Shown here piece after piece: positions 202 through 55,700 of a DNA stretch of 64,000 bases. A program made the translations under genes and the position numbers. The stretch comes from Scenedesmus sp. PABB004 (taxonomy: Eukaryota), in assembly GCA_014905635.1 (NCBI GenBank), contig JABVCE010000025.1:62001-126000 (forward strand). Direction: 5' to 3'. Each line of letters opens with the position of its first letter. The stretch's first letter is position 1. The notes beneath the pieces were generated by a model. That model searched no databases. It worked only from the letters and a program-made list of their open reading frames with translations, and had not been told where the DNA came from.

Positions 202-2737
202 ATGGAGAGCCCCACCAAGCAAGAGTCCGAGGAGCGGCGGCGCGGCCTGCGTGCGTCGCTCACGGGCGACTCCGCGCCGCTCGGCGGCGGTCGCTTCTTC
301 ACCGCGGCCGCCATCGGCGGCACGGTGCTGCTGCTGGCCGCGGTGCTGGTGCCGGTGCTGGTCACGCAGGTCGGGCCGGGCGGCCGCGGCGGCGGCGCGG
401 CCGCCAACGCGAGTACTGCGAGTGCCGCGGCCGCCGCCGCGAGCCTCGCTGCGGGCCCGCTCGGCGGCGACGCGCCGCCGGCGGCGCCGGCCGACGACGG
501 CGCCGACGACACCGTCGCGGCGGCGGACATCGCCGCCGCGCGCAGCCCGGCAGTGCCGCCGGGCCGAACGCGAGCTGGCCGACCGCGGTCGCGTCGGTGT
601 CGCCCGCCGCGCCCGGCGGCCGGGCGGTGCCGGAGACCTTCCTCGCGACCAGCCACGAGTGGCGCCGCGTCAAGGACTACGGCGGCGCCAACCTGGACGC
701 CTGGGCGGCCATCTTCCGCATGCTCGCGCCCAGCCCCGTGCTGCGCATCGGCGGCGCGAGCCAGGACCTCATGACCGAGGCGCCCGGCGCCGACACGTGG
801 GGCGCGCTCGTCAAGCTGCAGCGCGCGACAAACTGCAGGCGCGCGCGCGCGCGCCGCGCCGCGCCGCGCCGCGCCGGCGCAGGCCCCGCCCGGCACGCGC
901 GGCGCGGCGTTCAAGTTTGCGCCGCGTGGCGCTGAGCCGCCGCGCCCTGCCCGCCGCCGGCGCAGGTTTGTGATCGGGCTGCCGCTGGCGCAGAAGAACG
1001 CGCTGGACCTGAGCAGGGCGATCATGGCGGACGCGCGCGCGAGCCTGGGCGACGCGCTCATCGGCTTTGAGCTCGGCAACGAGGTGCGGCGTGTGTGCGT
1101 TCGCGCGCGCACACCCGAGAGACGGGCACAGCGCGAGCGGCGCCGCGCACGCACGCGCCTCAATCACCCGCCGCTGCTGCCGCCGCCGCCCGCGCTGCGC
1201 GGACCAGCCCGAGTTCTGGCTGCGCGGCATGGGCGGCTGGAGCGAGGACGGCGAGTGGGAGGAGGGGTTCGAGCCCTTTGCCGCATACTTCCACCGCACC
1301 GCGCTCGCGCTCAACCCCTGCAGCGAGCGCAAGAACGTGCTGTCCGGCCCCGGCTGGGGTGCGGTGCCGCCACGCGCGCTGCCGTGCCTCACGCGCGCGC
1401 CCCACGTGCGCGCCGCGCGCGCGCGCCCCCGCCGCGCCCCACGCGCGCGCCGCGGCCGCGCAGGCAACGTCAACACGCAGGACCCGAGCTGGTTCGCCAA
1501 GGTCGTGGCGCAGGGCAGCTGCTACTTGTGGGAGGCCAACACCCACTACTACCCTTACGTCAACAACGAGACCGTCACGCCGCCCGAGCTGCTGGCGCAG
1601 TGGCTGCAGGACTTTGCGGTCGACAAGTTCAAGGCTTACGCCGAGACCGCGGCGCGCGCGGGGCTCGACATCCGCATCAGCGAGACCAACAGCCTGTGCG
1701 CGCGCCGCGCCGCGCCCGCGGCGTGCCGGCCGCTGCCGCGCCGCGCCGACGCCCGCGCCGACGCCCGCGCCGACGCCCGCGCCGCACCGGCGCCCACCGC
1801 GCCGCCGCCGCCGCTGCCGCCGCCGCCGGCGTGCAGGTACGGCGGCGGGCGCAAGGGCCTGAGCGACACCATGGCCGGCACGATGTGGGTGGCCGACGCG
1901 CTCTTCGCGTTTGCGGGCGCCGGCGCGCGCGCGTTCCACCTGCACTGGGGCCGCGGCGGCGACACCAACGGCGACGCGCCGCCGAGCGTCGGCGTGCAGA
2001 CCAACTTCGAGTGGAAGGTGCGGCCTGAGCTCCGCGGCGCGCGCGCGTGGAGCGCAGACGCTCGCCGCTCGGGCGCGGCACCACGCGTATGCGCCGCGCC
2101 GCGCGCGGGGCGCAGGTGCCGGAGGGCGAGCCGCCGCTGCCCTACCCGAGCGTCCACGCGCCGTGGTACGGCTACCTGTTCTGGACCATCGCCACGGCCG
2201 GCGCGTACGGCAAGCCCACCGACGCGGCGCTCGTGCCCGCGAGCGTGGAGCGCTGGGGCGACTGCGACGCCAACATCAAGGCGCGCCGCCGCTGGCACCG
2301 CCGCGCGGGCGGGCCCTGGCCGCAGGGGCGCGCCGCCGCACAGCCCGGGGGGCGGCAGACCGCCCGCCGCCGCGGCCGCGCAGGTGTACGGGCTGCGCGC
2401 GTCTGGCGGCGCCGTGCGCGTCGCGCTGCTGAACAAGGACGCCGCCAAGGGCTGCAACGTCGACGTGCGGCTGGACGCCAAGTTCTGCGCGCCGCACGGC
2501 ACGCTCTTCCGCCTGCTGCCCGGGCCCCAGGGCATGGCCAGCAAGTACGGCATCACGTGGCGCGGGCAGCACTACATGGGCTCCGGCACGACCGGCCGGC
2601 TGCAGGGGCCGATCGAGCAGGCCTACGTGCAGGCCGCGACGTTTGCGGGCAAGCCCTGCTCCTTCACGGTCGGCCTGCCGCCGACGTCGGCCGCGCTGCT
2701 CGTCGTCGCAAAGCCGGGCGGCGGCGAGGCGCAGTAG
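202..2737 (+). CDS. Glycoside hydrolase family 79 (beta-glucuronidase/heparanase-like) with N-terminal membrane anchor
   Basis: Motifs VLRIGG, FELGNE|PEFW (acid/base Glu), HYYP, RISETNS (nucleophile) and GLSDTMAGTMWVAD. Introns 839-965 (GC-AG), 1084-1207, 1359-1463, 1696-1836, 2018-2115, 2281-2383 (GC-AG). Joining the ATG202 frame to the catalytic frame needs either an intron 370-545 or a 2-nt indel near 540. Confidence 0.85.
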
Positions 2738-2953
2738 CGGCGGGCGCGGCGGCCGAGGCCTGCGGAGAGGGCGCGGAGGGAGGGCGGCCGGCGAACTCAA
2801 CCCATCTCTCCGCGGTGCGCGCGCTGTGCGCGCGCGCGAGGGAGTCCCTGCACTTTGCGCGGCAGCGTGCTGCGCGCCAGACGGTGGGCAGGCGCTGCTG
2901 GCGGCCACACGAGCGGGGCCGTCACCGCGCTGCTGGCGTCACCCGGCGGTGCC

Positions 2954-5769: not shown

Positions 5770-8700
5770 TCACTGGCCGCCGCCGAGCTTGCGCGCGCGG
5801 TAGAGCTCGCGGCGCTGCACAAAGCTCTTGAGGTTGACCATCGGCGAGAGCAGCAGCAGCGCGAGGCCGCACGCGCCGACGAGCGTGTTGAAGTAGCTCG
5901 CCCAGCCGTACTCCTTGACGATGATGCTCAGCGGGATGCCCGCGTTGGCCGCGCCTGTGGCGCGCGTGCGCGCAAGCGCGGGCGAGCGAGGGCGCGCGGC
6001 GCGGCGGCGCGCGCGGGTTGGCGGCGCGGGGCGAGGCCGCGGGCGCGCGCCGCGCTTCAGGCGCCGCGCCGCGCGCGTGCGCGCGCGCGCGCCGCCCGCG
6101 CGCCGCGCGCACCGAGGTACGCGATCCAGCCGAGGAAGCCCTCGCTCGCGCCGACCGAGTCGGGCCCCACGAGCTCCGCGCCGCAGAGGCCGATGAGCAT
6201 CTGGGGGCCGTAGAGGAAGAAACCGATCATGAACACGTTGGCCCACTGCAGCGCCGCCGCGGACGCGGGGACGGCCTGGAAAGAGAGCAGCGCCGCGGCG
6301 ATGCCGACGGTGTAGGCCATCACGACCTGGGAGGCGGCGCGGGGCGCGATGGGGCGGGGGCGCGGGGGTGTGTGAACGCGCGGCGCGGCGCGGCCGGCCG
6401 GGCGCCGCCGCGCCCCGCGCGCGCTGCCCCGCCCCGCCCGCACCTGCACGCGCTTGCCGACCGCGCCCTCGCCCGGCGCGGCGCGGTTGATGAGCAGGTC
6501 GCTGAGCCGCCCCGCGACGAGCGAGCCGACGAGGCCGCCGAGCTCGAGCCCGCTCACGCGCACCGCCGCCTGCGCCGCGTCGGCGACGCCCTTCTCCTTG
6601 ATGAGGTAGAATACAAACCACGACGTCACGCCCTGCGGCGGCGTGCGTGGGTGTGCGCGTGTGCGGACGGGTGGCGGGCGGGCGGGCGGGCGGGTGAGGG
6701 AGGGGGCGCGGGGGCTCGGGGGTTTAGGTTGGCCAGGGCTCGGGGTTGACCAGGGGCTTAGGCCTCGCGCGGCCGGGGCTGAGCGCGCGGCGCTCGCACA
6801 CCACACCATACCACGCATCACACACACGCAACACACGCAGCACACGCAGCACACGCCGCGCACCTGGCGGACGATGTAGATGAAGAAATAGGTGAGGGCC
6901 ATGCCCCAGATGAAGGGGTTCTTGAGCACGTTGTTCAGCAGCTGCTTCAGCACGTTGGGCTTGGGCTTGGCCACGCCGTCGGCGCTGGGCGCAGGCTTGG
7001 CCGCGACCGGCTCCACCGGGGGATAGCCCAGGTCCTCGGGCTTGTCCTTGCTGCGGCGGCGGCGGCGCGGGTCAGGGCGGGGCGGGGCGCGGGTCGGGTC
7101 GGGGCGGGGCGCGGCGGCGCGGCCGCGAGGGCCACGGCGGCGCGCGGCCGCGAGGGCACGGCGCGCGGGCGGGCGGCGCGCGGGCGAGCAGCGCGCCCCC
7201 CGGGCGCGGCGGCGGCGCACCAGACGAAGAGCACGAACGTGCCGACGACGAGGCCGATGATGCCGGGCGCCCACATCCCCCACTTCCAGCCCATGCTCTT
7301 GGCAAAGCCGCCCGCGATGAGCGGCGCCGCAAAGCCGCCGAGGTTGTGCGCGATGTTCCACATGCCCCAGTACGTCCCGCGCTCCTTGCCCGCAAACCAG
7401 GTCGTCAGGATGCGCGCGCAGCACGGCCCGCCCACGCCCTGCGCGCGGCGGCGGCGGCGGCGCCGCCGCCGCGCGGCAGCGCGCGTGAGCGCGCGTACGC
7501 CGCCGCCCGCCCGCCCGCCGCCGGGTCGGCGCCGCCGGCGCGCCGCGCTGCCCGGCGGGCGCCGCGCCCACCTGCAGCGTGCCGTTGAGCGCCCAGAAGA
7601 AGCAGAACCAGGCGAGGCTGGTGCCGAAGCCAAACGCGATGTTGATCGCCGCGGTCGCCATGAGCCCGCCCGCGAGCAGCACGCTCGGGCTGAAGCGCGC
7701 GCCGAGCACGCCGCTCACAAACTTGGACATGCCGTAGGCAATGGGGAAGATGCTGGTCATCGCGCCGATCTGTGAAAAGCCATTGCAACGGTCACAAGCA
7801 CAGGGGCGCGTCACGAGCCGAGTCGAGGGCGCGCGGGCGGGGCGGGCGGCGGGAGCTCGGCGGGCGGCGGGACAGCGGGGCGCGGGGCGCGCTGGCGGGG
7901 GTTGGGGCTGTTCCGCGCACTAACTGCAGTGAGCGCCGGCGGCGGCGGCGGGCGGCGCGCCTGCGTGATGTCCATGCCGAGCTTTGGGTCGGCGACCATG
8001 ACGGGCGCGGTGTAGGTGAGGCTGTTGCGCGTGAGGTAGTAGCAGGAGTACCTGCGCGGCGGGCGGCGCGGGCGGGGTTTAGGCGCAGCGGCGCGGCGGG
8101 GGCGCAGCGGCGGGGGCGCGGCGCGGCCCGCGTGTCGGCGCGCGGCGCCGGCCGGCAGCGCGGCACGGCCACGCCCGCTGCTGCTGCTGCTGCTGCTGCT
8201 GCTGCCGCCGCTGCCGCCGATGCCGCCGCTGCCGCCGTGCGTGCGCGCAGCCGGGCGGCGGGGCAGGGGCGCTGGCGCGGCGCCACGCCCGCTGCCAGCT
8301 GCTGCTGCCGCTGCTGCCGCTGCTGCTGCTGCCGCTGCTGCTCCGCGCACCCGATGACGATGCCAATGAAGACCAGCAGGCGGCGGCGGATGAACTCGCC
8401 GCTGTACTCGGGCAGCGGCGCGTCCGACGCGGCCTGCGGGCGCGGCGCGCGGTGGCTCGGTGGCTCGGGGGCGCGGCGCGGGCACCCGCGCGCGGGCACC
8501 CGCGCGCGGGCTGCGCGCAGGCGCGAGGCGCAGCTTCCACCCGCGCGCGGCGGCGCCGCCCGGCAGCTGCCGGGCGCACGGCCGCGCGCGCTCACCGCGC
8601 CGCCGGCCGCGCAGGCGACGTCCGGGCGCTGCGCGGGCTGCTGCGCCAGCGGCGCGGCCGGCAGCGGCTGCTGCTGCGGCTGCAGCGGCGCGCCCGCGCG

Positions 8701-13189: not shown

Positions 13190-14672
13190 TCAGCCGCGCG
13201 CCGCGGCGGCCTCGTCGCCGCCGCCGCTGCCGGCGAGGTTGTCCTGGCTGCCCCAGCGCTTGTGGCGCGCGAGGCAGTCGGCGAGGGCCAGGCTGTTGAG
13301 CTCGCTTGCCACTAGGCTCGCGCTGAGCTCCAGCGCGCCGGCGGCGCCGGCCGCCGAGGTCGCGGTGATCTGTATGGACGCGGACGCGGCCTTGCCGCCG
13401 CCCGCTGCAGCCTCGGCCGGCGCCGGCGCCGGCGCGCGCAGCGCGGGGTGGCACGACACAAAGCCCTGGATGCCGCGCGCGTTGCCTGCGGCGCGGCGCG
13501 GCGTGCGTCGTGCAGCGCGCGGCGCGCGGGCGTCGGCTGCCGGACGCCGACTGCGGGCGCGGCGCGGCCGAGCCGCCCGCGCGCCGAGCCGCCTGCCTGC
13601 GCGCGCGCTGCGCGCGCCCCGCCCACCGCCCACCGCCCACCGCCCGCCGCCCACCGCCCGCCGCCCGCCGCCCACCGTCGTCGCTGGAGATAGGCCCCGC
13701 GAGCTTGTGGAGGTGGCCGTCGGCGACGTCGTAGATGGTGCCGTAGAGGTGCAGCTCCTGCCCCTCCGCCCACGCGCCCGCGACGACGGGGCTCGTCGCG
13801 ACGTGGAAGAGCTGGCGCAGCACGTTGAGCTCGCACAGGCGCGCAAGCTGCGCGTCGGGGTCGAGCCCGCGCAGCTCGGCCTCGGCCTGGTTGCGGCACT
13901 CGCGGATGTCGCTGATCCAGCAGTTGACGAGGCTCTGCGTCGCGTGCGGGAGCTGCAGCGCCGCCTTGACCGCGCCGCAGTTGTAGTGCCCGCACACGAT
14001 CACCGACTTGACCTGCGCGGCAGGGGTCGAGGTCGAGCCGGCGCGCGCGCGCGCGTGTGGGCGGGCGGGCCGGCGCGCATGCTGCTCGTGCGAAGCGCCG
14101 CGCCGCGCCGCGTGCCCTGCTGGGCGCGTGGCACGCGCCTTGAGCGCCTTGACCGCGTACTCCAGGCACGACATCACGTTCATGTCGCGGTGCATCGCCT
14201 GGTTGCCGACGTTGCGCTGCACGAACACCTCGCCGGGCGCGAGGCCGACGATTTGGTTGGCGGGCACGCGCGAGTCGCTGCAGCCGATCCACAGGTGCTC
14301 CGGCGACTGCTGGCTCGCCAGGCGGGCGAAGAAGTCTGGGTCCTCCTGGAGCATGCGGGCCGCCCACGCGCTGGGCACATCCGCGGCGGCGGCGGCGGCG
14401 GCGGCGGCCGCGCAAGCGCGTGGTGTGACGGGGCGCAGCTGCCAGCGCGGCCGCCGCGGCGCCCCAGCTCCGCACAGCGCGTGGGTGTGAAGCGGGCGCA
14501 GCTTCCAGCCCGTCTAGCGCGGCTGCCGAGCCCCACGCAGCCGCAGCCGCTGCCGCCAGCTCGGGGAAGCTGGCCAAGCCTCCGACGCCAGCCCGCACCG
14601 GTTCGCGGCCAGCAAGTCGGCCATGCCGTCGCTATGGCCGCCGCCGTGGCCGGCGCAGCAGGTCTGCGACAT
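13190..14672 (-). CDS. Beta-type carbonic anhydrase with low-complexity C-terminal extension
   Basis: Zn ligands in WIGCSDSRVP and VCGHYNCGAV; GEVFVQRNVGN and LCELNV. Introns 14598-14371, 14138-14013 (GC-AG), 13675-13486. Confidence 0.93.
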
Positions 14673-18152: not shown

Positions 18153-18234
<82 letters not shown>

Positions 18235-18247
18235 GGGGCCGCTGCCG

Positions 18248-18279
<32 letters not shown>

Positions 18280-18929
18280 GCGTCCGGCGCCGCGTCGTCC
18301 GCCGGCGGCAGCTGCTCGACCGGCCCGCCCGGCGTCGCGAGCAGCAGGCGCACAAACGCGCGGCCGTCCATGTTGAACGGCAGGACCTGCCCGCCCACGC
18401 GGTTCAGCGACACGTTGAGCGCCAGGTACTTGGCGCTTGCGGGGTTCAGGTCGTTTGCAAACACCTGCCGGCGCGGCGCGGCGCGGCCGCCGCGGTCGGC
18501 CGGGCGCACGCGCAGGCGCACGCGCACACGCACACGCGCCGCGCCGCGCCGCGCCGCGCGCGCACCTTGCAGCCGCGCTTGCCCGCGGGCACGGCGAAGG
18601 GCCCGATGCCCGCCATGATGTCGGCGACGACCTCGCCCGGCGCAAAGCTCTCCACCAGGCGCGTGTGCTCCGCCTCGAGCCGCGAGTTCCAGTACACCTG
18701 CGCGCCGCGGCGGCGGCGCGCCGGCGGTCGGCGCGCCCGCGCCGCGCGCGCCGGCGGCGCCGCGCCGCGCCGCGCCGCGGCCCCGGCTCGCTGCCGCGCG
18801 CGCCTGCGAGAAGTCGAGCCTGAAGCGCAGGCCGTGCTGGGCGACCTCGGTCTCGAACGAGGCCGGCCCCGCGAGCACCTCCATGTCAAACACGCGGTAC
18901 TCATTCTCAATGCTCCCCAGCTGACGCAG

Positions 18930-20250: not shown

Positions 20251-21801
20251 ATGGCGGCGGCAGGCGCGCCGCCGGCGGTCTCGATCTCCTGCCGCGCCAT
20301 CACCATCGCCGGGGAGGGCGCCGACGCGGCGGCGCCGACGCAGCAGCTCTTCCTGCTGGTGCACTGGCACGAGGCCGCGCGGCGCTTTGACGTCTCCCTC
20401 ACCGACGGCGGCGGCGCTGTGTGGGCGGCAAACGGTGCGCGGCGGGGCACGCTGCCGCGCGCGCGGCGGCGGCGGCCGTGGGCCGCGGCCCTGAGCGCGC
20501 CGCGCGCCGCAGGCTGCACGACGGTCGCGTCGGCGGGCGTGGACGCGGATGAGGCATGGCGGCGCGCGCGTGCGGCGCTGTCGGCGCCGCACGCCGCGCC
20601 CGGCGACGAGTACGCGTACCGCACCCTGGTGCCGGGGGGGCAGCCCGACGCGCTGCAGCTGCGCTGGAGCTGGGCCACGGGCGTGGGGCTGCTGCGCGAG
20701 GTGATGCGCACCGAGCCGGCGCTGCAGCTGCTGCCGGCGGGCGAGGCGGCGGCGGCGGTGCGCAGCATGCTGGCACACCTCGTGGCCAGCCACGGCGCGG
20801 TGGAGGTGCGCCGCGGCGCGCCGCGGCGCGGCGGCGCCGCCGCCCGAGCAGGCGAGGCCGCCCGACGCTCGTGCGCGCCGCCGCCGCCGCCGCCGCCGGC
20901 CGCAGGCCGCGCTCGCGGAGAGCCGCGCCGCGCAGCGCGCGCTCGAGGCGTCGCTGGCGGAGAAGGAGGGCCTGCTGCGGCAGCACGCAGCGGCGCGGCA
21001 GGAGGAGGAGCGGCAGCTCTTCACCAAGGCACGCCGCGGGGGCGGCGGTGGCGGCGCGCGGCGGCGGCGGCGGCGCTCGCGCGCAGGGGCCCAGCGTCCG
21101 ACAGCCGCCGCCGCCGCCGCCGCCGCCGCGTCCGCCGCCGCCGCGTCCGTTGCCTGCAGTTTGCGCTGCTGCTGAACAAAAAGGCGGAGCGCATCGCGGA
21201 GCTCACGCAGCGCCTCACCGACCGCGACGAGGCGCTCGCGCGGCTGCAGGCGTCGGCCGGCGGCGACGGGCACGACACGGACGACGAGGCGCGCCACGCC
21301 GCGTGCGGCGCGGCCGCCGCGTTTGACCCCCGCTACGACTCGGACACGGAGCCCGAGTCGGGCCAGGGCGAGCCGGAGGGGCGGCCGGGGCCGCCAGGCA
21401 GCGCCGTGGCCATGGACGTGGACGGCGCGCCGCCGCGGCCGGCGGCGGCGGCGGGGGAGCCGCCAGGCGGCGCGGCGCACGCGGCCGACGCGCCGCCGGC
21501 GCCGGCGGCGCCAGTGGTGGCGATGCTGGACGCGGACACCCTGCCGCTGAGCGCGGAGCAGCTGCAGGGAGTGCCGGAGCTGCGCCGGCAGCACGACGTG
21601 CGGCAGCAGCAGGCGCCAGAGCCGGAGCAGCAGCAGGCAGCCGCGGCGGCGCCAGCCACGGACGCGGCGCAGGCAGACCCCGCCGCAGCGGCGGCCGCCG
21701 CAGCGGCGGCGGGCGGCCTGGGCTGGCTGGCGGTGGGCGCCGCGGCGCTGCAGCCGTTTGAACAGCACAAGAAGAGCACGGTCAAGCGGCGGACGAGGTG
21801 A
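20251..21801 (+). CDS. XRCC4: XRCC4-like non-homologous end-joining protein
   Basis: Beta-rich head (FDVSLTDG...VW, LQLRWSW), coiled coil, ligase-IV-binding-like LFTK|FALLLNKKAERIAEL, acidic YDSDTE and basic C-terminal KKSTVKRRTR. Introns 20435-20512, 20806-20905, 21029-21159 (GC-AG). Confidence 0.75.
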   Translation: MAAAGAPPAVSISCRAITIAGEGADAAAPTQQLFLLVHWHEAARRFDVSLTDGGGAVWAANGARRGTLPRARRRRPWAAALSAPRAAGCTTVASAGVDADEAWRRARAALSAPHAAPGDEYAYRTLVPGGQPDALQLRWSWATGVGLLREVMRTEPALQLLPAGEAAAAVRSMLAHLVASHGAVEVRRGAPRRGGAAARAGEAARRSCAPPPPPPPAAGRARGEPRRAARARGVAGGEGGPAAAARSGAAGGGAAALHQGTPRGRRWRRAAAAAALARRGPASDSRRRRRRRRVRRRRVRCLQFALLLNKKAERIAELTQRLTDRDEALARLQASAGGDGHDTDDEARHAACGAAAAFDPRYDSDTEPESGQGEPEGRPGPPGSAVAMDVDGAPPRPAAAAGEPPGGAAHAADAPPAPAAPVVAMLDADTLPLSAEQLQGVPELRRQHDVRQQQAPEPEQQQAAAAAPATDAAQADPAAAAAAAAAAGGLGWLAVGAAALQPFEQHKKSTVKRRTR

Positions 21802-29361: not shown

Positions 29362-31310
29362 ATGCTGCGCCGCGCGCTCCGCTGCCAGGCAGCCCTGGCC
29401 GCAGCGCACCCGGGCACGGCGGCGTGGCGGCGGCTGCACGGCGCCGGCGCCGGCGCAGCCCCTGAGCAGCCAGGGGGCATCCTGGCGGCGTACGAGCGGT
29501 GCGCGCGGCCCGGCGACGGGCGCACGCGGCCGCCGCTCGCCGCGTGGCGCACGACCCGCCCGCACCGCGCCGTGCCGCCTGCGCAGCCTGCTGGCGGTCG
29601 GCGAGCTCTCCCCCGATGCCGCGCAGCTGGCGGCGGTGCGGGCGCTGCAGCTGCTGCAGCAAGCCCTCGTGCTGCGGGCGCGCGGCGCGGCGGCGCCCGC
29701 CCCGGCGGCAGCGGGCGCCGCCGCGGCCAGCAGCAGCGGCGGCAGCGAGCGCAGCGGCGCCGCGCTCGCCGCCGCCGGCGCGCCGCGCGTGGCGGGCGCG
29801 TACCTGCACGGCCCCGTGGGGTCGGGCAAGACGATGCTGATGGACCTGTTCATCGCCACGCTGCCGGCGCCCGCCGGCGGCGGCGGCGCTCACACGGGCG
29901 GCGGCGGCGCTGACACGGGCGGCGGCGCCGCCGCGCCGCGCCCGCTGCGCGTGCACCGCCTGCACTGCCACGAGTTCATGCTCGCCGCGCACGCGCGCCT
30001 CCACGAGCTGCAGCAGGCGCTGCCGCGCGTCGTCGCGAAGAGCCGCGCGGGCCTGCCCGTCTTCAGGCGCGGCCGCGCAGCTGCATGCTGCGTGCTGCGT
30101 GCTGCGCGGCCGGCGGCGCCCTCAGCGCCGCGCCGCGCCGCGCCGCGCCGTGCCGCGCCGCCACGCGCGGCCCCGCGCCGCGCGCAGGTACGCGCCGCCG
30201 GCCGAGGACCCGGTGCTGGCCGTCGCGCGCGAGGCGGCGGCGCGGTGCGAGGTGCTCGCCCTGGACGAGCTGCACCTCGCCGACGTCGCCGACGCGCTGC
30301 TGCTGTCGCGCCTGCTGTCCGAGCTGCTGGACCGCGGCACCGCGGTGGTGCTCACCAGCAACCGCCCCGCGGCGCACCTCTTCAGCGGCGGCGGCCCGAG
30401 CCGGCGCTACGTCGAGCCGCTGCTGCGCCTCATCGACGGCTCGCTGCTGCAGCTCCGCGTGGCGGGCGGGCGTGACTTTCGGGAGCGCGGCGGCGCGGCG
30501 GCGCCCCGCGGCGGCGACCGCGCGCCGGGCGCCTGGCTGGTGGGGCCGGGCGCGGCGGACGCGCTGGCGCGGCGCTGGCGCGCGCTCGCGGCGGCGCACG
30601 GCGCCGACGGCGACGGCGCGCCCGTGAGCCTGCCGCTGCCGTTTGGCCGCGACTTGCGGGTGCCCCGCGCGCTGCCGCAGCAGCCGGCGGAGGGCGCGCA
30701 GGCGGCGGCGGCGGCGCAGGCCCAGCGCCCGCAGCAGCCGGCGCTGGCGGCCGCGTGGTTCAGCTTCGAGCAGCTCGCGGGCGCCGGCGGCAGCCGCTCG
30801 TCGCTGGAGCAGTCGGGCGCGCTGAGCGCCAACGACTGCCTGGTGCTGGCGGCGCAGGTCGGCGCACTGTTTGTGGACGGCGTGCCGCAGCTCGGCCCCG
30901 CGCAGCGCGACGAGGCGCGGCGCCTGGTCACGCTGCTGGACTGCCTCTACGACGCGCACGCGCTGCGCCCGGGCAGCGTGCGCCTGTGCGTCGCGGGCGC
31001 GGTGCCGCCGGGCGAGGTGTTCCTGCCGCTGCTCGGCGCCGCGGCGGCCGCGGGCGTCAACCCCAACCTCGGCCGCGCGGCGGGCGCGCGGCTCGACGTC
31101 GCGCGGCTGCTGCGCGAGCACGGCCCCGGCGCGCGCGCGGACGGCGGCGGCCGCGACGAGCTCGGCGCCGCGGCGGGCGAGGTCGGCGGCGGCGCGGCGA
31201 GCGGCGGCGGCGGTGGCGGCCGCTCGGCGCTGCTGCCCGAGGAGGTGTTGATGTACCACCGCGCGGCGTCGCGCCTGGCTGAGCTGTGCGAGGTCGAGGA
31301 GTGCGGCTGA
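29362..31310 (+). CDS. AFG1: AFG1/LACE1/ZapE-family AAA+ ATPase, mitochondrial-type presequence
   Basis: Walker A GAYLHGPVGSGKTMLMDLF, HCHEFM, Walker B LALDELHLADVADA, TSNRP, DEARRLVTLLDCLYD and RAASRLAE. Introns 29499-29586, 30067-30187 (GC-AG). Confidence 0.92.
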
Positions 31311-33110: not shown

Positions 33111-35386
33111 ATGGCGAGCTCCACGGCCCCCGGGGTGGCCAAGCCCCCCAGGAAGCGCAAGGTCAAGGTCAGGCCCGTCCTGGAGAAGGGCCTGGGCGCG
33201 TCTCCGGGCGGCGAGGAGGGCGCCGGGAACAGCAAGTTCGCTCGCGCGCTCGGCAGCACCGACTTCGGCACGCGCGAGAAGGGCCTCGAGGCGCTGACGC
33301 GCTTCCTGCTGCACAAGAAGGAGCTCACCGACCTGGACATGCTCAAGCTGTGGAAGGGGCTCTACTTCTGCTTCTGGCACTCCGATAAGGCGCCCGTGCA
33401 GGCGCGCGGCCGCCGCGGCGGGCCGCCGCGGCGGGCCGGGGCGGCGGCGGGCCGGGCAGCTGGGGGCCAGCAGCCCGGCGCGGCGCGCGCGCCGCCGCGG
33501 CCGTGAAACGGCAGCCGGCAGCGCCGGCGGTTGCGAGCGGCGCCGCGCGTTGTTGAGCCAGCGGCGGCTGACCAGTCAGCCCCGCGAGCTGCGGCCGGGC
33601 AGCCCCGCCCTGTGCGGCGGCGGCCGCCGCTAATCCTCCCTCCCCCGCCGCGCGCCGCGCCGCGCCGCAGGCGGAGCTCGCGGAGCGCCTCGCGGGCCTG
33701 CTGCCGCGGCTCGCGCCGCGCATGGCCGCGCTCTACTGGGCGGGCCTGCTCGCGACGCTGCGGCGCGAGTGGTTTGCGATGGACCACCACCGGCTCGACA
33801 AGTTCCTCATGCTCACGCGCAAGTTCGTCGCCGCGCTGCTGACGCGCCTCGCCGAGACGCGCTGGTGCGGCGGGGGTGTGTGGGCGCGCGCAGCACGCGC
33901 GGGCCGCGAGGCAGGGCCGGCTCGTGCGCGCGGGCAGCACACACACACGCACACCGACGGCCGGCGCCGCCGTGCCTGCCGCCGTGACCGCGACCGCCGC
34001 CGCGCCGCGCAGGGACGCCGGCGCGATCGCCGACCTCACGCTGCGGCTGCCGCTCGGGCAGTCGCTCGTGCCGGCGGACAGCGCCAAGGCGCTGGGGCTG
34101 AGCTACCACCTCGCGGACGTGTGGCTGCAGGAGCTGCGCCGCGTCGCGGGCGACGCGCCGGTGCCGGGCCCCGCGCTCGCCGCGCTGGTGGAGCCGTTTG
34201 CGGTCGTGCTGGAGGCCGGCGGCGAGCAGGCGCTCATCACGCGCGTCAAGTGAGCGCGGGGCAGCGCGCGGGCAGCGCCGGCGCCGCGCAGGCCGCGCGC
34301 CGCGAGGCCCCCGAGCGCCGCCCGCCTGCGCGCCAACCGGCCGGCCCCCGCCGCCCGCCGCCGCCCGCGCGCATGCGTAGGGAGTCTGTGTTTGATGTGC
34401 TCGCCGCCGACGCGGCGGCCGCGGCCGCGGGCGACGGCGACGACGACAGCAGCGCGTACGCGGCGGCGCTCGACGCGCCGGGCCTCGCGGCGGCGCTCTT
34501 TGCGCGCGGCGCCGCGGAGGGCGTGCGCGCGCGCAACCGCGCGGCGCTGTATGCTGCGAGCAAGGAGCTGGAGCGCGCGGCGGGCAAGCGGCGCAAGAAG
34601 GTGCACGGCGCGGCCGCAGCGGCGCCGGCGGCGCAGCCGGCGCAGCAGCAGCCTGCCAAGCAGCAGAAGGAGCAGCAGATTGCCAAGCAGCAGAAAAGGC
34701 AGAAGAAGCACAAGCAGGAGCTTGAGGAGGCGCAGCCGAAAGAGGAGGCGCAGCCGGCGGCGGCGCAGCAGGCGCCCGCGCCGGGCCGGAAGAAGCGCAA
34801 GCACGGCGCGGAGCAGGCGCAGGAGCAGGCGGCGGCAGCGGCGCCGCCGCCGCAGCAGCAGCAGCCGGGCGTGTCGCCGCGCCCGGGCGGCACGGCGGCC
34901 GCAGACGCCGCTGCGCCGGCGGCACGGCGCTCGAGCAAAAAGCGCGGCGCGCAGGCGGCGGCGCCGTCGCCCGCGCCGGCCACGCCCGCGCCCGCCGCGA
35001 CGCCCGCGGCCGCGCCCGCGGCCGCGCCCGGCGGCAGCGCGCTGCGCAGCAGCGGGCGCGCGCGCCGGGCGGCCGCGGACGGCGGCGGCAGCGCGGGCAA
35101 GCGGGGCGTGAAGATCGACCTGCGGCGCAACATCTACTTTGCGCACGGCGCGCCGGTGCCGCCGGAGTCCATCCGGTCGCCGCCAAACACCAAGCCCAAG
35201 GGCAGCGCGCTCAAGAGCGCGGCGGCGGCGGCGGCCGCAGCCGCGGCGGCGGCGGGGGGCGCCGCGCGCACGCCGCAGACCGCGCCCGCCAAGGCGGGCG
35301 GCGGCAGCCGGCTCGGCCCGGGCAGCGCGCGCAAGCCCGTCACGCCGAGCAGCGTGCCGCGCGTCAAAGCGGCCGCGTTCTTCTGA
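33111..35386 (+). CDS. RRP1: Nop52/RRP1-family nucleolar rRNA-processing protein
   Basis: KLWKGLYFCFWHSDKAPVQ and REWFAMDHHRLDKFLMLTR, with a Lys-rich tail. Introns 33402-33670 (GC-AG), 33865-34012, 34250-34380. Confidence 0.92.
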
Positions 35387-38472: not shown

Positions 38473-41382
38473 TCACGCCGCGCCGGCCACGCCGCGCGCC
38501 GCGGCGCTCTCCGCGGGCCGCGCGACGACGTTGCCCTCCTCGCGTGTGACCAGGACCTGGCCGGGCTTGGCGCCCTTGAACTTTTTGAGCGCCTCCGCGC
38601 GCGCGACGATCACGTCGGCCTTGCCCGCGACGCGCGCCTTGCTGAACCACGCGGCGAGGTCGGCCGCAAACTGCAGGTCGTCGCGCCCCGGCTCGCCCTG
38701 GCCCGGCTCGCGCCGGATGACGGTGTGGCTGCCCGGCAGGCCGCGCACGTGCATCCACAGGTCGCCCGGCTTGGCGACCTGGTGGCTGAGCACGTCGTTC
38801 TGCTTGTTGTTGCGCCCGACGAGCACCGTGAAGCCGCCGGGCGACACAAACGCGCGCAGCCCCGCGCCGCCCGCCGCGGCCGCGGCCGCGGCGAGCGCGC
38901 CGCCCGCCGCGCCGCCACCCGCGCGCGCGCCGGCCTGCTTGCGCGCGGCCTTTCGGCCCTTGGCGGCGGCCTTGGCGCTCAGCGCCGCCTCGGGCGGCGG
39001 CCTGATCACGCGCGCCTCAACCAGCTCCTCCTGCGCGGGCGGCGGGGGCGGCGGCGCCTGTGGGCCGCCGGCGCCGCCGCGAGCGGCGCGCTGCCCGCGC
39101 GCCCCCGGCTCCTTGGGCGGCGGGCCCGCGCGGCGCGCACCTGCACCTCCCGCAGCGCCGCCAGCTCCGCCTCGGCGCCGCCCGGAGGCATCTGCGCGAG
39201 CTCGAGCTCCACCTACGGCGCGGCGCGCGCGCGCCGTCGGCGCCGCCCGCCCCGCGCGGCCGGCCGGCCGGGGCCTGCCTGGCGCCTGGCGCCCCGCAAG
39301 CCGCGCCGCCCCTTCCACCGCTCCCTCCCTCGCCCCCATCCCTGGCCCGGCCGCCGCCTGGCTCACCGTCTCCAGGTATTCCAGCTCCTGCTGCGCGGCG
39401 CCGAGCAGCGGCGACACGGCGTCGACCGCGCGGCGCAGCTTGCGTGCGCGCTTGTACGTCGCCTCGGCCTGCTCCACCGGCGTCTTGTCGGGGTCCAGCG
39501 CCAGCGTCACCGCCTCGCCGCTGTCCCAGTCCTCCGCGACGAGCTCCGCCGCGCCGGGCTCGAGCCTGCGCGCAGCGGGAGGCGCGCGGCGGGCGGGCGC
39601 GCGCGGGGTCTGCGCCGGCGCGCGCTGCGCGGCGCCGCGCCCAGGCCTCGCTGCCGCGCCCCGAGCCCCGAGCCCTGAGCCCTGGAGCCTCGACCCCCGC
39701 ACCGATAGAGGTTTGCCATGATGATGTCGGCGCTGCGCTGCAGTGCCGCCGCGCCGTCCGCCGCGGCGAGCTGCTGCTCAAACGCGCGCACGCGCCCGCG
39801 CGCCTTTTTCAGCGCGCCGCGCACCGCCGCGCTCAGGCGCGTGTGCAGCGCGGCGTAGAGCTCGCCGGCCTGCAGCCCCCGGAAGACGCCGTCGAGCATG
39901 TCGTGCGCCGAGGCGTGCACCTCGGGCAGCGGGCGCAGGCCCAGCACGGTGAAGCGTCCGGTCGCGGGGCACGCGCTCGGCGCAAACGCGCCGCCCTCCA
40001 GCGCGGCCAGCCACGCGAGCCACGTGCCGTGCAGGGCCGCCCAGCCGGCGTCGCCGAGGTCGCCCGGTGCCGCGGCCGCGTCGACGCCCGCCGCCGCGCA
40101 CAGCTCCTGCACGAGCGCCGGACTCACGCCCATGTACGCCCGCGTCGCGCCCGCCAGCACGCTGCCGACGCCGCCGCCGCCGCCCCGCCGCTGCGCCGCG
40201 CCGCCCGCGCCGCGCTCGGCGGCGGCGAGCGCCGCGCCGCGCGTGACCGCGTCGCGCCACGCGTCCGCGGGCTCGGCGGCGCTCGGCGGCACGCCGCTCA
40301 CGCGCGGCGGCAGCGTATAGGTCCGGCCCTGCTGCACCTGGCGCAGGCTGGACATCGCGCCGCCGACCTGCGCGGCGCGGGGCACGCGGGGCGCGCGGGT
40401 CGGCGCGCCCGCCGCCGCTGCAGCCCGAGCCGCCCGCCCGCCCCGCACGTGGGCCCGGCCGCCGCCGCGCCTGGAAGGCCGCGGCCAGGATGGCGTCGTC
40501 GTCGCCCGAGGTCAGCACCACGTTGCTGTACCTGCGCGCGGCGCGCAGCACAGCGTGGGCGCGAGCGCGCGCCGCCGCGGCTCTGCCGGCAGCGACCGGC
40601 GGCGCGCCGCCGGCGCCGGGCGGGCCCTGGCCGGTGCCGCGCCCCAGCTCAGCGCAGCGCAGCCCCTCACTTGGCCATGATCTCGCAGAACAGCCGCCGC
40701 GCCGCGGGCTCGCCCGGGCGCGGCCCGAATTCGAGCCGCGCCACGCGCTCCCACGGCGCCGGCAGGTCGGCGCGCAGCAGCACGAGGCCCTTGAGCTGGG
40801 CGCTCGCCTGCGCCGCAAACGAAAACGCCTCGGCCACGTCGCCGCGCGGCGGCGGCTGGCCCATGCACACGCGCGCCGCGACGGGGTGCCAGCTCAGGTG
40901 CAGCCAGCCCTGCGCGAGCGGCGTGCGCAGCCGCAGCGCGAGCGTGCAGCGGTCCGGCTGCACCACCTGCGGCGGCGCCGCGGCGCCGGGACGGGCGCGG
41001 GCCGCGTCGGCGGCGGAAGAAGGCGTGCGGCGCGCGCGCGTGCTCGTCCCCCGCCCCCCGCTGCGCGCCGCACCTCCTCGACCTTGCTCGGCACCCACGC
41101 GCCCGACAGCTCGTGGCAGCACGCCGCCAGCGCCGTGTAGTCAACCGTCTGCTGCTTCGCGTGCGCCGCCGGCTGCGGCTGCCCCACAGCCTGCTCGCCA
41201 GCCTGGGCGGGCCGCGCCGGCGCGCCGAGCGCCGCCGCGCCGCCAGCGGCGCGCGCCGCCGCGCGCGGCCAGCGCGGCAGCTGCTGCCGCCGGCCGCCAC
41301 GCGCCAGCGCGGCCCATGCGCTGAGCGCCATCGGTGGTGGCCGACGCCCCGCTGCCGCAGGCGGGGCGCGGGGCGCCAGCAT
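38473..41382 (-). CDS. rqcH: Organellar (probably plastid) NFACT/FbpA/RqcH-family ribosome quality-control protein
   Basis: VDYTAL, LSWHP, WERV, CEIMAKYSNVVL, YMGVSP, YKRARKLRR, VGRNNKQND and DLWMHVRGLPGSH. Introns 41073-40967, 40670-40532, 40470-40368 (GC-AG), 39702-39566, 39366-39213, 39140-39031. Confidence 0.9.
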
Positions 41383-42663: not shown

Positions 42664-43929
42664 ACGCCGCGCGCGCAGGCTGCCTGCAGCAGAGCAAGAT
42701 CGGCGGCGGCAACGCGGCGACCGCGGGCGGCGCCAACACATACGGCGCGCGCCGCACGTCGAGCTCGCTGCTGATGGACCCGGAGACGCAGGCCAGGTCG
42801 CCGGCGCTGACGGCGCTGATGGGCGCGATGCAGGCGCGCGGGCACGCGCTGCTCGCGCACGCCGACGCGGGGCGCAGCTGGGGCGCGCCGGGGCGCATGC
42901 CCGCGGGCGGGCAGTACTGCTACGAGTCGCCCCAGGTCGCGCGGTGAGCAGCGGCGGCGCCGCCGCGCAGCGCGCCGCCGCGACCAGCCCCGCCGCCGCG
43001 GCGCGCCGCCGACACCGCGCCGCCACTCCCGACCCGGCCCGCGGCGGCGGCCAGCTACACGGCGGGGCAGCACTTTCTCGCGCACGAGGACGCCTTCCCC
43101 GCGCTGCTCGCGGGCGCCAACGGCTTCCAGCGCCACGCCACGCTGCTGCTGTACCTCAACTCTGTCGCGCAGGCGCGGCGCGCCCACGCGGGCGCTGCTT
43201 CCCCGCCGCGCCGCGCCCGCCGCGGCCGGCCCCCGCCCCGGGCGGGGCAGGGCGCCCCGCCCCGCCGCGCGCGCCGCGGCGAGCCCCACGCCCCCGCGCG
43301 CCGCCCCGCGCCGCCGCAGGGCGGCGCGACGCACTTTGACGCGCTCGGCATCAGCGTGGCGCCGCGGCAGGGCATGGCGCTGCTGTTTTTCCCGGCCTTT
43401 GCCAACGGCACGGCCGACCCGCGGTGCGGCGCGCGCACCGCCCGCGCGCGCGGCCCCCGCCGCCCGGCGCTCCGGCGGCTCAGCCGCCCGCCCGCCCGCG
43501 TGTGCGTGCCAGGTCGCTCCACACGGCGCAGGACGCGGTGGACACCAAGTGGGTCATGCAGCAGGTGCGGCGCGCGCCTGCGCCGCGCCGCGCCCGCCCC
43601 TCATCCTCCCGTCTGCCTGCTCACCGCCCCCGCCGCCCCGCCGCCCGCCACCCCCCGCCCGCTGCCCCGCCGCCCGCCGCCCCGCCGCCCGCCGCCAGTG
43701 GGTCGCGCGCGGCTACCCGGTGCCGCAGGCGGTGCTCAAGGCGGTGCGCGTCGCGGCGCTCGCGGAGGCGAGCGGCGAGGCTGCGGCGGCGCCGGTGCGC
43801 GAGGTCTTCCGCGTCGCGGCGGCGCCCAGCGGCGGCGCCAGCGGCGGCGCCAAGAAGGCGCGCAAGGGCGGCGGCGGCGGCGGCGCGAAGAAGGGCGGCG
43901 GCGCCAAGAAGGGCTTCAGCCGGCGGTGA
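41731..43929 (+). CDS. Prolyl 4-hydroxylase-like 2OG-Fe(II) oxygenase, probable organellar targeting
   Basis: DPAIFTVDGF, RRTSS, ESPQVARY, HED, LLYLN|GGATHF, SLH and KWVMQQW. Introns 42557-42678, 42944-43054, 43173-43319 (GC-AG), 43424-43512, 43565-43698. Confidence 0.88.
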
Positions 43930-51102: not shown

Positions 51103-52217
51103 ATGCTGCGGCGCGCCGCCGCACTCGGAGCACCCCGCGCGGCGCCGCAGCGCGGCATGGCAGCTGCTGCCGCAGCGGCCGCGGCGCAGCCAGACAACTA
51201 CTACCCGCACGGCCTCGTCAGCCTGTCACCAGAATGCCCCGTCTTCCACGTGCTCGACGGCCTCGGCGGCTTCTCCGAGCAGGCCCTGGACGGCCCGTCG
51301 CCCTTCGTCCGGCCCACGACGCTGCGCTTCACGCACGGCGGCAGCGCGCGGCGCTGGGACGCGGTCGCGGCGCACGACAGCGTGGCCGTGCTGCTGCTCC
51401 ACGCGCCGCGCCGCGCGTTTGTGATCGTGCGGCAGTTCCGACCGGCAGTGTATGCCGTGCGAGCCCGCGCCGCGCGCGCGGCGGGCGCGCCGGACCCGCC
51501 GCCGGCCGCGGGTGCGCGCGCGCGGGTGCAGCGCGCGCAGCGGGCGCGCGCCGCGCGCCGCGCCCCGTGGGGCGCGCCCGTCCCGCCACGCGCCGCCGCC
51601 GCGCCGCCAGGGCTGTGCTACGAGCTGTGCGCTGGCATCATGGACAAGGCGGGCAAGAGCGCGGAGCAGGTGCGCGGCAGCGCCCCCCGCGGCGCACGCG
51701 GCGCGGCCGCCGCCCGCACCGCGCTCCCGCCGGCCTGCGCCGACCCCGCCGCCGCGCCCACGGCGGGCCCCGGGGCAGACGTGCTGCGAGGAGGTGCTGG
51801 AGGAGGTCGGCTACAGCGTCCCGCCGGCGGCGCTGCGCCGCGTCGCGGGCGGCGTCGTGTCGTCGGCCGGCATCACCGGCGCGACGCAGGACGTCTTTTA
51901 CGCCGAGGCGCGGCGCCGCACCAAAACCCACGGCGCTGCAGCCGCCGCGCGCGCCCCACCAGCGTCCGTCCCTCCCTCGGCGGCCGCGCCGGTGGCGGAC
52001 CCGGGCGGTGCGCCGCGCGCGCACGCAGGTGGACGAGTCGATGCGGGCGTGCGCCGGCGGCGGCACCGCGTGCCGGAGCGAGCGCGTCGAGGCGCTCGCG
52101 CTGCCGGTGGACGCGGCGGCGGCGTTCATCGAAGACGCCGCGCTCGCCAAAACGCCGGGGCTGTGTTTCGGGCTGCTCTGGGGCGCCGCGCGGCTGGCGG
52201 GCGGCGGCGGGACGTAG
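51103..52217 (+). CDS. Nudix hydrolase, NUDT14/UDP-sugar pyrophosphatase-like
   Basis: WDAVAAHDSVAVLL, VRQFRPAVY, Nudix box ELCAGIMDK...EEVLEEVGY and GGG...ERVE. Introns 51512-51610, 51670-51778, 51908-52028 (GC-AG). Confidence 0.88.
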
Positions 52218-52737: not shown

Positions 52738-55700
52738 GGCCGGCGGGCCGCCCTTCTTCTCCTCCGGCGCCTCCACGATCACGCACTCGCTCGTCGTGAT
52801 GAGGCTGCTCACGCTCGCCGCGTCCACGAGCGCGGTGCGCACGACCTGCGCGCGCGGCGGCGGCGGCGGCGGCGTCGGCGCGCCGGCCGTGCCGCGCCGC
52901 GCCGCGCCGTGGAGCAACCCGGCCGCCGCCCGAGGTGCCCCAACGCGGCTCCCAAGCGCCGCACACACGGCGCCTCGCGGGGCGTCTGTTTGTGTTCCTG
53001 CTTCGCACCTTGAGCGGGTCGATGATGCCGGCCTTGACCATGTCGGTGAACTCGTCGGCCGCCGCGTTGTAGCCCATGCTCGGGTCCTCCATCTCCTCGA
53101 CCTTGCCGATGATCACCGCGCCCTCCACGCCCGCGTTGCTGGCGATCGTCTTCATCGGCACCTGCGGCCGCGGGGCGGGGGCAGGGCCGCGGCGGAGGGC
53201 GCGCGCGTGGGCGCGGCGCGGCGAGGGGAGCGGGCGGGCGCGGACGAGCGGCGGCGCGTGGGCGGGCCGGGCGCCCGGCGGCGCCACGGGCGGCCGCCGC
53301 GCGCGCGGGCGGGCGGCGCGCCGCGCGGCGCGCCTTGAGCGCGTTGGCGATGATCTGCACGCCGATCTGCTGGTCAAAGTTGGCGAGCCCCTCCTTCACG
53401 CCCTTGAGCGCCTTGGCCGCGTGCAGCAGCGCCGCGCCGCCGCCGGGCACGATGCCCTCCTCCACCGCCGCCTTGGTCGCGTTGAGCGCGTCCTCGACGC
53501 GGTCCTTCTTCTCGCCCACCTCCACCTCGGACGCGCCGCCGATCTTGATCACCGCAACGCCGCCTGCGCGCGCGGGCACGGGTCCAGGCCGAGCGCGGCG
53601 ACGCGCGTGCGTCGGCGGCGGCCGCGGCGGCGGCAGGCCGCGCGCGGCGGCGGCGGCGGGCCTCCGCGCCAGCACCAGACTCGTCTGACCCAGTGCGAGC
53701 CGCGCCCGCGCGCGCGCGCCGCGGGGCGCGCACCCGAGAGCTTGGCGAGGCGCTCCTGCAGCTTCTCGCGGTCATAGTCGGACGTCGTCGCCTCCATGGC
53801 CTGCCGGATCTGCTCGCAGCGCGCCTCGAGGTCTTTCTTCTCGCCTGCGCGCGGCGCCGGGCGCAGGAGGAGTGTGTGAGAGAAGGGCGCCGCGCGCTGC
53901 GCCGCCGCCGCCGCCGCCGGCGGCGGCCGCCCCGGCAGGCCCCTGGCGCCGCCGGGCCGGGAGCCGGCCGCGCGCACCCGCGCCGTGCAGCAGGATGGTG
54001 TCGTCCTTGGTGACGGTGACCTTCTTGACCTGGCCCAGCTGCGCGAGCTCCACGTTCTCCAGCTTGTGCCCCAGGTCCTCGCTGATCACCTCGCCGCCTG
54101 TCCACCCGCGGCGGCGACGCGGGCGCGGCGCGGTGAGCGGCAGCGGCGGCGCGGCGCAGGGAGAGCGCGGGGCGCGCGCGCGCGCGCCCGAGTCGACCCC
54201 GCCCTGCTGGCCGCGCCGCCGCGCACCGGTGAGCACGGCGAGGTCCTGCAGGTTGGCCTTGCGGTTCTCGCCAAAGCCCGGCGCCTTGACCGCGACGACC
54301 TTGACGCCCGCGCGCAGCTTGTTCACGATCAGCGTCGCCAGCGCCTGCGGGGGCGGGCGGGCGAAAGCAGGGAGGGAGAGGAGAGGATGCATGAGCGCAA
54401 GAGGCAGAGCGCCGGTGCGCGGCGCGCGGGCCGTGCGCGGCGCGGCGCGGCGCGGCGCGGCGCTGAGGCGGGCGTACCTCGCTCTCCACGTCCTCGGCCA
54501 CGATGACCAGGGGCCGCTGCACCTGGACCACCTTCTCGAGGATGGGCAGGATCGACGCCAGCCTGGCGGGCGGGCGATGGGGCGGGGCGGGGTGAGGCGC
54601 GGTCGGCGGTCGGCGGCCACAAACACACACCGGCAAAACATGCGCGGCCAGAACCACACTCACGCACACAGACACGCGCACACGCCCACACACGCCTGCA
54701 TGGTCCCCGCGCGCCCACCCGCTGATCTTCTTCTCCACCACGAGCACGAGCGCGTTCTCATACTCCGCCTTCATCGCCTTCTGGTCGGTGATGAAGTAGG
54801 GGCTGATGTAGCCGCGGTCAAACTTCATGCCCTCAACCACGTCCAGCTCGTTCTCCAGCGTCTTGCCGTCCTGCACCGTAATCACGCCCTCCTTGCCGAC
54901 CTGGAGCGTGGCCGGCGGCGGCGGCGGCGGCGGCGGGTGGGCGCGGGCGAGCGAGCGGGCGAGCGTCGGCGGGCGAGCGGGCGCGCGCGGCGCGGGGCCG
55001 GGCGGGGCGGTCGCCCCCGCTGGGCGGCGCGGCGCGGCGCGGCGCACCTTCTCCATGGCGCGCGCGATGAGCTCGCCGATCTCCGTCTCGCCGTTGGCGG
55101 AGATGGTGCCCACCTGCGCGATCTCCTCGGTCGTGCTGATCATCTTGGTGCGGCTCTTCAGCACCTGCGACCACCAGCGGCGGCGGCGGCGGCGGCGGCG
55201 GCGGCTCGGCGCGCGCGGCACGCCCGCACACGGCTGCCGCCGCCGCCGCCGCTGCGCCGCCTGCACAGCCGCCGCCGCCTGCACAGCCGCCGCTGGCGCC
55301 GGCGCGGGGCGCGCCTGCAGGACGTTGTCGACGGCGAGGTTGATGCCGCGGCGCAGGTCCATCGGGTTCATGCCCGCCGCGACCGACTTGCAGCCCTCGT
55401 TCAGGATCGCGCGCGCCAGCACCGTCGCGGTCGTCGTGCCTGGCGCGGCGCGGCAAGGTGGGCGGGCGGGCGCCGTGGGCGGGCGCGGGGCCGCCGCGGC
55501 GCAGCTCCGCCCTGAGACTGAGGCGCTCGCGCCCTGCCGCTGCTCCCCGTGCGGCGCGGCGCGGCGCGGCGCACCGTCGCCGGCGACGTCGTTGGTGGCC
55601 GACGCGACCTGCTTGACAAGGGACGCGCCCATGTTCTCAAAGCGGTCCTTGAGCTCGATCGCGCGCGCCACAGTCACGCCGTCCTTGGTGATCTTGGGCC

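Follow-up and report, generated by a model that had tools for sequence, protein, structure and literature searches.

In the 64-kb window of Scenedesmus sp. PABB004 analyzed here (contig JABVCE010000025.1; the window is the whole stretch of 64,000 nucleotides), 15 of 96 curated introns start with GC in place of GT and end in AG. This is a share of 16% (exact confidence interval 9-25%; P = 9e-10 for at least 15 such introns at a 2% rate), taken from one 64-kb window. It lies well beyond chance and is roughly ten times the usual level of about 1%, as the first-pass annotation of this DNA had noted; its own count of 15 in about 106 introns (~14%) was a fair figure. The weight of the evidence makes it probable that these are ordinary U2-type GC-AG introns that share the donor consensus of their neighbors, have acquired C at position +2 through compositional pressure, and are tolerated where the rest of the donor matches in full. 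The predicted introns are as follows (the slash marks the exon-intron boundary, and ab initio denotes a call from coding frame and splice signals):

839..965, plus strand: GC-AG intron of a GH79-like gene; phase 2; 127 nt; CAG/GCGCGC; ab initio.
2281..2383, plus strand: GC-AG intron of the GH79-like gene; phase 0; 103 nt; AAG/GCGCGC; ab initio.
7770..7960, minus strand: GC-AG intron of an MFS transporter gene; phase 0; 191 nt; CAG/GCGCGC; ab initio, with a weak acceptor signal.
14013..14138, minus strand: GC-AG intron of a beta-carbonic anhydrase gene; phase 0; 126 nt; AAG/GCGCGT; Pfam Pro_CA, positions 53 and 54.
18698..18803, minus strand: GC-AG intron of a Trm5 gene; phase 0; 106 nt; CAG/GCGCGC; spliced alignment, four of four homologs.
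21029..21159, plus strand: GC-AG intron of an unnamed gene; phase 0; 131 nt; AAG/GCACGC; ab initio.
24609..24723, minus strand: GC-AG intron of an unnamed gene; phase 1; 115 nt; CAG/GCGCGC; ab initio.
27338..27425, plus strand: GC-AG intron of an unnamed gene; phase 0; 88 nt; CAG/GCGCGC; ab initio.
30067..30187, plus strand: GC-AG intron of an AFG1-like ATPase gene; phase 2; 121 nt; CAG/GCGCGG; match to protein P0180.
33402..33670, plus strand: GC-AG intron of a Nop52/RRP1 gene; phase 0; 269 nt; CAG/GCGCGC; Pfam Nop52, positions 62 and 63, and PDB chains.
40368..40470, minus strand: GC-AG intron of an NFACT/NEMF-like gene; phase 0; 103 nt; CAG/GCGCGG; ab initio.
43173..43319, plus strand: GC-AG intron of a prolyl 4-hydroxylase-like (P4H) gene; phase 0; 147 nt; CAG/GCGCGG; PDB 3itq_A, with a weak E-value.
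51908..52028, plus strand: GC-AG intron of an unnamed gene; phase 0; 121 nt; GAG/GCGCGG; ab initio; donor context 4.9, the weakest of the 15.
53162..53333, minus strand: GC-AG intron of the mitochondrial Cpn60 gene; phase 0; 172 nt; AAG/GCGCGC; spliced alignment and Pfam positions 409 and 410.
55165..55314, minus strand: GC-AG intron of the Cpn60 gene; phase 0; 150 nt; CAG/GCGCGC; spliced alignment, with flanking exons 42/42 and 37/39 identical to Tetradesmus.

All 15 coordinates proved to be the first base of an intron that runs from GC to AG. Each follows exonic AG, and the donors read GCGCG in 14 cases and GCACG in one (21029), which bears out the strict AG/GC(G/A)CG signature described earlier. 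None is of the U12 type, for which the donor motif is RTATCCTT-like, every donor here reading GC[GA]CG. On both strands together the window holds 95 copies of AGGC[GA]CG, of which 15 serve as donors, versus 25 of the 41 copies of AGGT[GA]CG. At such a base composition the motif alone is little proof, and the junctions themselves were therefore tested. The lengths of 12 of the 15 introns are not multiples of three, so these introns must be removed to keep the reading frame.

Seven of the 15 junctions (53333, 55314, 18803, 30067, 33402, 14138, and 43173) are fixed to the residue by homology. For three of the genes we used a protein-to-genome spliced aligner in three modes: GT donors only, GT or GC donors, and any dinucleotides. 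Against the Tetradesmus protein, Cpn60 was resolved into 12 introns, ten of them GT-AG and two GC-AG (at 55314 and 53333), with alignment scores of 2271 (GT only), 2350 (GT and GC), and 2356 (unrestricted). The unrestricted mode returned the same intron lengths (150 and 172 nt), and the spliced product of 571 residues has, among others, exons that are 53/53, 42/42, and 74/77 identical to Tetradesmus. The Trm5 intron 18803>18698 was picked by all four homologs (Tetradesmus, Scenedesmus NREL 46B-D3, Volvox, and Chromochloris), and without restriction the aligner again gave this 106-nt intron, displaced over three identical bases. The AFG1-like model from the window equals the NCBI protein P0180 (Afg1l, Scenedesmus sp. 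PABB004) in 579 of 579 residues, and it does so without gaps only with the GC intron 30067>30187; two more homologs gain 37 and 44 units with that intron. The claim that GT-only prediction damages these genes was borne out: the restricted alignments score lower by 79 units for Cpn60, by 83-111 for Trm5, and by 41 for AFG1, and they introduce insertions and deletions (18 gap positions in AFG1).

Domain and structure comparisons cover the other fixed junctions. The Pfam Nop52 model is continuous over 33402 (positions 62 and 63), as are the PDB chains 8eth_4 (61 and 62) and 8i9p_Cc (67 and 68); an in-frame GT site 6 nt upstream of 33402 would remove two residues. For the beta-carbonic anhydrase, Pfam Pro_CA is continuous over 14138 at positions 53 and 54. 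When the read-through translation of the P4H gene was compared with PDB 3itq_A, residues 118-155 and 155-179 were aligned and the 49 intron codons were left unaligned, with a weak E-value of 0.014. All five peptide junctions quoted in the first-pass annotation (Trm5, beta-carbonic anhydrase, Cpn60, RRP1, and P4H) were seen in the Pfam or alignment outputs.

The same annotation had reported no frame-preserving GT alternative to the GC donors. Taken literally this is untrue: frame-preserving GT ALTERNATIVES are present at all 15 sites, with 3-85 donor and acceptor combinations each within 120 nt. However, even the best of them at each site falls short by 9-27 log units and would lengthen or shorten the product by 2-45 codons, and its donor context is at most 2.1, compared with at least 4.9 at the GC sites. 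At 839 the best in-frame alternative lies at 797, 9 log units worse and with 14 codons removed; at 21029 there are just three in-frame GT combinations, the best being 26 log units worse.

The intron count behind the 16% share came from gene finding in several rounds. In an initial self-trained ab initio run, where introns carried a low penalty, the intron number grew out of control to 417-738, most of them GC and including hundreds of false GC introns. This gene finder was discarded and replaced with a pairwise exon-joining table and then a stricter Viterbi run, which gave 112 introns and recovered all 15 claimed GC sites. Curation dropped 16 introns (9 GT and 7 GC) on length (>450 nt), donor context (<1.5), and acceptor score (< -3); two introns were removed by hand, 28110 because it runs into an antisense gene and 47582 because it leaves a zero-length exon. 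The 96 curated introns comprise 77 with GT donors, the 15 with claimed GC donors, and four further GC calls (59797, 62273, 57208, and 22280).

Of these four calls, the one at 59797 is probably a fusion of two genes. The one at 57208 (CCG/GC) is false: residue 231 of gamma-glutamyl hydrolase marks the start of the next exon, and the upstream exon closes with ...YISTMEARK, followed at once by a GT at 57277. In gamma-glutamyl hydrolases the motif ...STME..K directly precedes YP..QWHPEK. A PDB search with the exon upstream of 57208 gave no match in either form. At 57133-57277 (minus strand) this gamma-glutamyl hydrolase-like gene has an apparent unusual GT donor, AAG/GTCCGC, with C at +3, a base found in 0 of the 77 curated GT donors; the gene finder chose a chance CCG/GCGCGC site 69 nt downstream of it. 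At 62273-62335 (plus strand) a 16th GC donor may be present, bearing the complete CAG/GCGCGCGC signature; the 63-nt "intron" is in frame and stop-free, and may be plain coding sequence.

The false call at 57208, the hundreds of false GC introns from the unconstrained run, and the 95 chance copies of the motif are what speaks for the GC donors being artifacts of wrong gene models, of chance AGGCGCG motifs, or of T-to-C errors in the consensus sequence. Against this stand the seven junctions fixed by homology, among them the GC intron at 30067 with which the AFG1 model equals a public protein exactly, and the 12 introns with a length not divisible by three. Random errors in GT donors would, moreover, all have had to fall in AG contexts, with a probability of (32/77)^15 = 2e-6. 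We therefore regard an artifact as very improbable.

The 77 GT donors define what these introns are measured against. Their commonest bases are G at -1 (71), G at +3 (76), C at +4 (59), G at +5 (76), and C at +6 (49), so that the local donor consensus is G/GTGCGC, not GTAAGT, and the GC donors follow the same consensus with C at +2. The earlier suggestion that a missing U1 match at +4 and +6 is peculiar to GC donors did not hold, since the GT donors share it.

The GC donors fit this consensus more tightly than the GT donors do. Exonic AG precedes all 15 GC donors but only 32 of 77 GT donors (p = 1.7e-5), and outside phase 0 the counts are 3/3 and 3/42 (p = 0.0014). The same direction is seen for C at +4 (15/15 versus 59/77, p = 0.037), for the donor context score computed without +2 (6.70 versus 4.71, p = 4e-6), and for the acceptor score (7.05 versus 5.83, p = 0.012). 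GC introns are also more often in phase 0 (12/15 versus 35/77, p = 0.022), a bias that follows from the need for A at a non-third codon position, position 3 being 96% G+C. The downstream exon begins with GT at 10 of 15 GC introns versus 17 of 77 GT introns (p = 0.0012), where the joined junction reads AG.GT; within phase 0 alone the difference is weaker (8/12 versus 12/35, p = 0.09). We consider this a possible downstream-exon GT signal. It recalls human GC-AG introns, which reportedly have an enhanced acceptor-exon consensus. Churbanov et al. (2008, PMC2490688) found that at GC donors the rest of the signal lies closer to consensus, and the tighter fit of the GC donors here is this published compensation rule.

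The window supplies the composition that would drive such changes. Its G+C content is 75-83% in each 4-kb block, above the ~65% taken here to mark GC-rich algal genomes, and the Scenedesmus sp. PABB004 genome is reported at 39.8 Mb, 78.5% GC, and 7,092 genes (PMC12571836). Among pyrimidines, C makes up 0.87 in intron interiors (87% G+C) and 0.94 at codon position 3. T is nevertheless retained at +2 in 77 of the 96 donors versus 87-94% C among neutral-site pyrimidines, and donors in the full context AG/GY[GA]CG comprise 25 with GT and 15 with GC, with no supported GC donor in any other context. We therefore conclude that selection continues to act against C at +2, with less force in strong contexts. 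The sites, junctions, frequency, and context bias are direct observations on the window; from them we infer compositional pressure as the cause and a standard spliceosome. A very strong AT-to-GC substitution bias would push T to C everywhere, and C at +2 seems to survive only in full-match donors, that is, those with exonic AG, G or A at +3, C at +4, and G at +5. A strong acceptor side and the remaining donor contacts would presumably carry recognition at such sites.

One orthologous intron bears on this substitution, in line with a comparison that the first-pass annotation had proposed. At the Cpn60 intron after ...NALK, the six read-through open reading frames (ORFs) of genomic contigs found among eleven related Cpn60 proteins all have Val (GTN) at the intron start, where the window has Ala (GCG). 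To judge from these conceptual translations, it is one direct case of GT in relatives (6/6) and GC in the window at the same position. A metagenome scan for orthologous Cpn60 loci kept 80 loci with a best identity of 79%, and there was no close relative among the 11 aligned (L001-L012 without L002, which has a non-ACGT letter). One of these, L008:2224-4127, on an unrelated metagenome contig of 68% GC, has a Cpn60 gene with three introns, the first donor of which reads AAG/GCGCGT, a further GC donor from a GC-rich eukaryote.

Several points weigh against this interpretation. Eight of the 15 junctions (839, 2281, 7960, 21029, 24723, 27338, 40470, and 51908) are without homology support and were called from coding frame and splice-signal scores only, and splicing at the GC junctions as a whole is predicted from DNA sequence. 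For these eight, Pfam searches of the exact-boundary exons, run to an E-value of 10, did not help to place the donors, and PDB searches with the NFACT exons flanking 40470 were without matches. For the GH79 gene the homolog search yielded a single relative, P0122, which is likewise a read-through ORF and has the exon before 2281 out of frame, and PDB searches were uninformative; the acceptor of 2281..2383 is supported, the Glyco_hydro_79C domain beginning at the exon start, with the donor unfixed by homology. The recovery of all 15 sites by the Viterbi run is not independent evidence, the signal matrices having been trained on sets that contained GC donors. A divergent fourth AFG1 homolog, P0191, aligns with a different solution. 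The strict AG rule may be overstated by ascertainment, as GC donors in weak contexts would be hard to recognize; in phase 0, moreover, GT donors are often preceded by AG as well (29/35). Finally, G+C alone is no predictor of the GC-AG share, Micromonas RCC299 having 2.7% at 64% GC (PMC3033335), and some other factor besides G+C may act on it.

The last point also favors a changed spliceosome, in which variant U1 or U6 snRNA, U1C, or Prp8, or a heavier reliance on U5-exon contacts, would allow GC and GYGCGC donors to be recognized like GT. The window donors do depart from the U1-complementary GTAAGT at +4 and +6, and the exonic AG upstream and GT downstream that are enriched at GC introns are positions contacted on the exon side. 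For Ostreococcus, whose GTGCGTG donors are similar, Irimia and Roy (PMC2483917) suggested that possible snRNA changes deserve exploration. However, the GC donors require a stronger context than GT donors, which indicates that C at +2 is still a handicap, and the retention of T there in 77 of 96 donors, where neutral sites would give 87-94% C, tells against equal recognition. The U1 5' end is moreover the canonical 11-mer in Aureococcus and Micromonas (PMC3033335). A search of the window against Rfam at gathering thresholds returned no match and no snRNA. A variant spliceosome is not needed, the data fitting GC pressure with context compensation, and we judge it unlikely.

Somewhat less likely still is a shift of 5' splice-site recognition from U1 pairing at +2, +4, and +6 to exon-side contacts (AG upstream and GT downstream, through the U5 loop and Prp8 region), which would make C at +2 near-neutral as long as the exon contacts are intact. 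If this were true, the AG...GT enrichment in the exons at GC introns would be the footprint of exon-side recognition, and snRNA or protein components may be changed.

Two further explanations concern the introns as a class. Introner-like elements have been proposed for part of the GC-AG excess in Micromonas pusilla, and GC donors carried by such a spreading intron family would be expected to resemble one another; by blastn, introns of the window do match one another at 77-85%. These matches are, however, pervasive (3227 pairs among 96 introns, with GT-GT, GT-GC, and GC-GC pairs mixed), as expected of low-complexity sequence of 87% GC. The GC introns form no sequence family of their own in the blastn comparison, and the Cpn60 GC intron position is common to relatives that carry GT. 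We give a spreading family very little credence.

The other explanation, put forward for animals, is that selection maintains GC donors as weak sites through which intron retention or alternative splicing is regulated. In human, nematode, and Arabidopsis, GC donors are overrepresented in alternatively spliced genes (PMC2490688), and in Emiliania abundant GC donors go together with frequent intron retention (PMC4028052). Here, in contrast, the hosts are housekeeping genes (Cpn60, Trm5, Nop52, and AFG1), and there was no good-quality alternative in-frame product at these sites. Regulation of this kind appears improbable, more so than either change to the splicing machinery, and compositional pressure acting with a standard spliceosome remains our preferred explanation.

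The pattern is already known from GC-rich algae and is not a new kind of splicing. Iwata and Gotoh (2011, PMC3033335) reported GC-AG shares of 39.6% in Aureococcus, 22.2% in Micromonas pusilla, and 7.7% in Chlorella, which they tied to G+C, along with a canonical U1 5'-terminal 11-mer in Aureococcus, M. pusilla, and Micromonas RCC299 with its low GC-AG share; pelagophytes have 14-17% (bioRxiv 10.1101/2024.10.30.620910), which the ~16% of the window equals. Like these algae (Aureococcus anophagefferens, Micromonas pusilla, and Chlorella sp.), the window combines high G+C with canonical AG acceptors and with GC-AG introns at a share well in excess of 1-2%. Unlike them, it comes from the Chlorophyceae, its G+C is higher still (~78%), and the context dependence (exonic AG and C at +4) is seen directly within it. 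The lineage follows from the Cpn60 exon identities, which are 96% to Tetradesmus obliquus and 91% to Raphidocelis and Monoraphidium and place the source as a chlorophycean green alga of the order Sphaeropleales.

In Emiliania huxleyi, ~56-61% of donors are GC, as verified by RT-PCR, and tools biased toward GT mis-predict its genes (Feldmesser et al. 2014, PMC4028052). The attribution of GC donors to G+C and the mis-annotation by GT-biased predictors are shared with the window; however, GC donors form a majority in Emiliania at 65% G+C and a minority here, where they are known from sequence alone. The rare GC-AG introns of animals and plants (<1-2%; PMC2490688) likewise show compensation by the remainder of the donor and interconversion of GT and GC at orthologous introns, whereas in the window such introns are about ten times as frequent and the consensus that is matched is the local GTGCGC instead of GTAAGT. 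Ostreococcus lucimarinus, with a donor consensus of GTGCGTG (Irimia and Roy 2008, PMC2483917), is a green alga whose donors also have G at +3, C at +4, and G at +5, but it is intron-poor with very rigid signals, while the window is intron-rich. In the literature searched, GC-AG abundance is apparently unreported for the Chlorophyceae, and per-species figures may lie in supplements; the comparative paper in which the Scenedesmus sp. PABB004 genome is tabulated (PMC12571836) does not use the words "splice", "intron", or "GC-AG".

Other properties of the window concern its annotation. Genes are densely packed and introns are short, with ~100 in 64 kb. There are 632 ORFs of at least 40 aa, and stop-free ORFs are present in six frames, so ORF lists are of no use in this window. 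The antisense of true exons scores as coding because third-position G+C is symmetric, for example at 27512-27754 (minus strand) opposite the gene at 26912-27764 (plus strand). At 18000-18330 (minus strand) the large Trm5 exon is extended, compared with homologs, by a long insertion rich in poly-Q and Gly/Ala, which leads spliced aligners to place a spurious intron there; this "intron" in the poly-Q stretch, which appeared only in homolog alignments, was taken as an alignment artifact. Exon searches with the GH79-like (202-2737, plus strand), Trm5 (17455-19912, minus strand), and Cpn60 (52714-56231, minus strand) genes found no 100%-identical public protein, unlike the search with AFG1; these genes may be absent from the public annotation or differently modeled there, or may have been missed by the word-index search.

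The window extends the known GC-AG trend to the Chlorophyceae at ~78% G+C, the highest among the cases compared, with no new mechanism shown; what it adds is a clear rule of donor context and possibly a GT signal at the start of downstream exons. Gene prediction in very GC-rich green algae must allow GC donors, GT-only models breaking Cpn60, Trm5, and AFG1. For the biology of these algae, the window lets the balance between mutation and selection be read cleanly at the intron's most conserved base, where T at +2 gives way only in full-consensus contexts.

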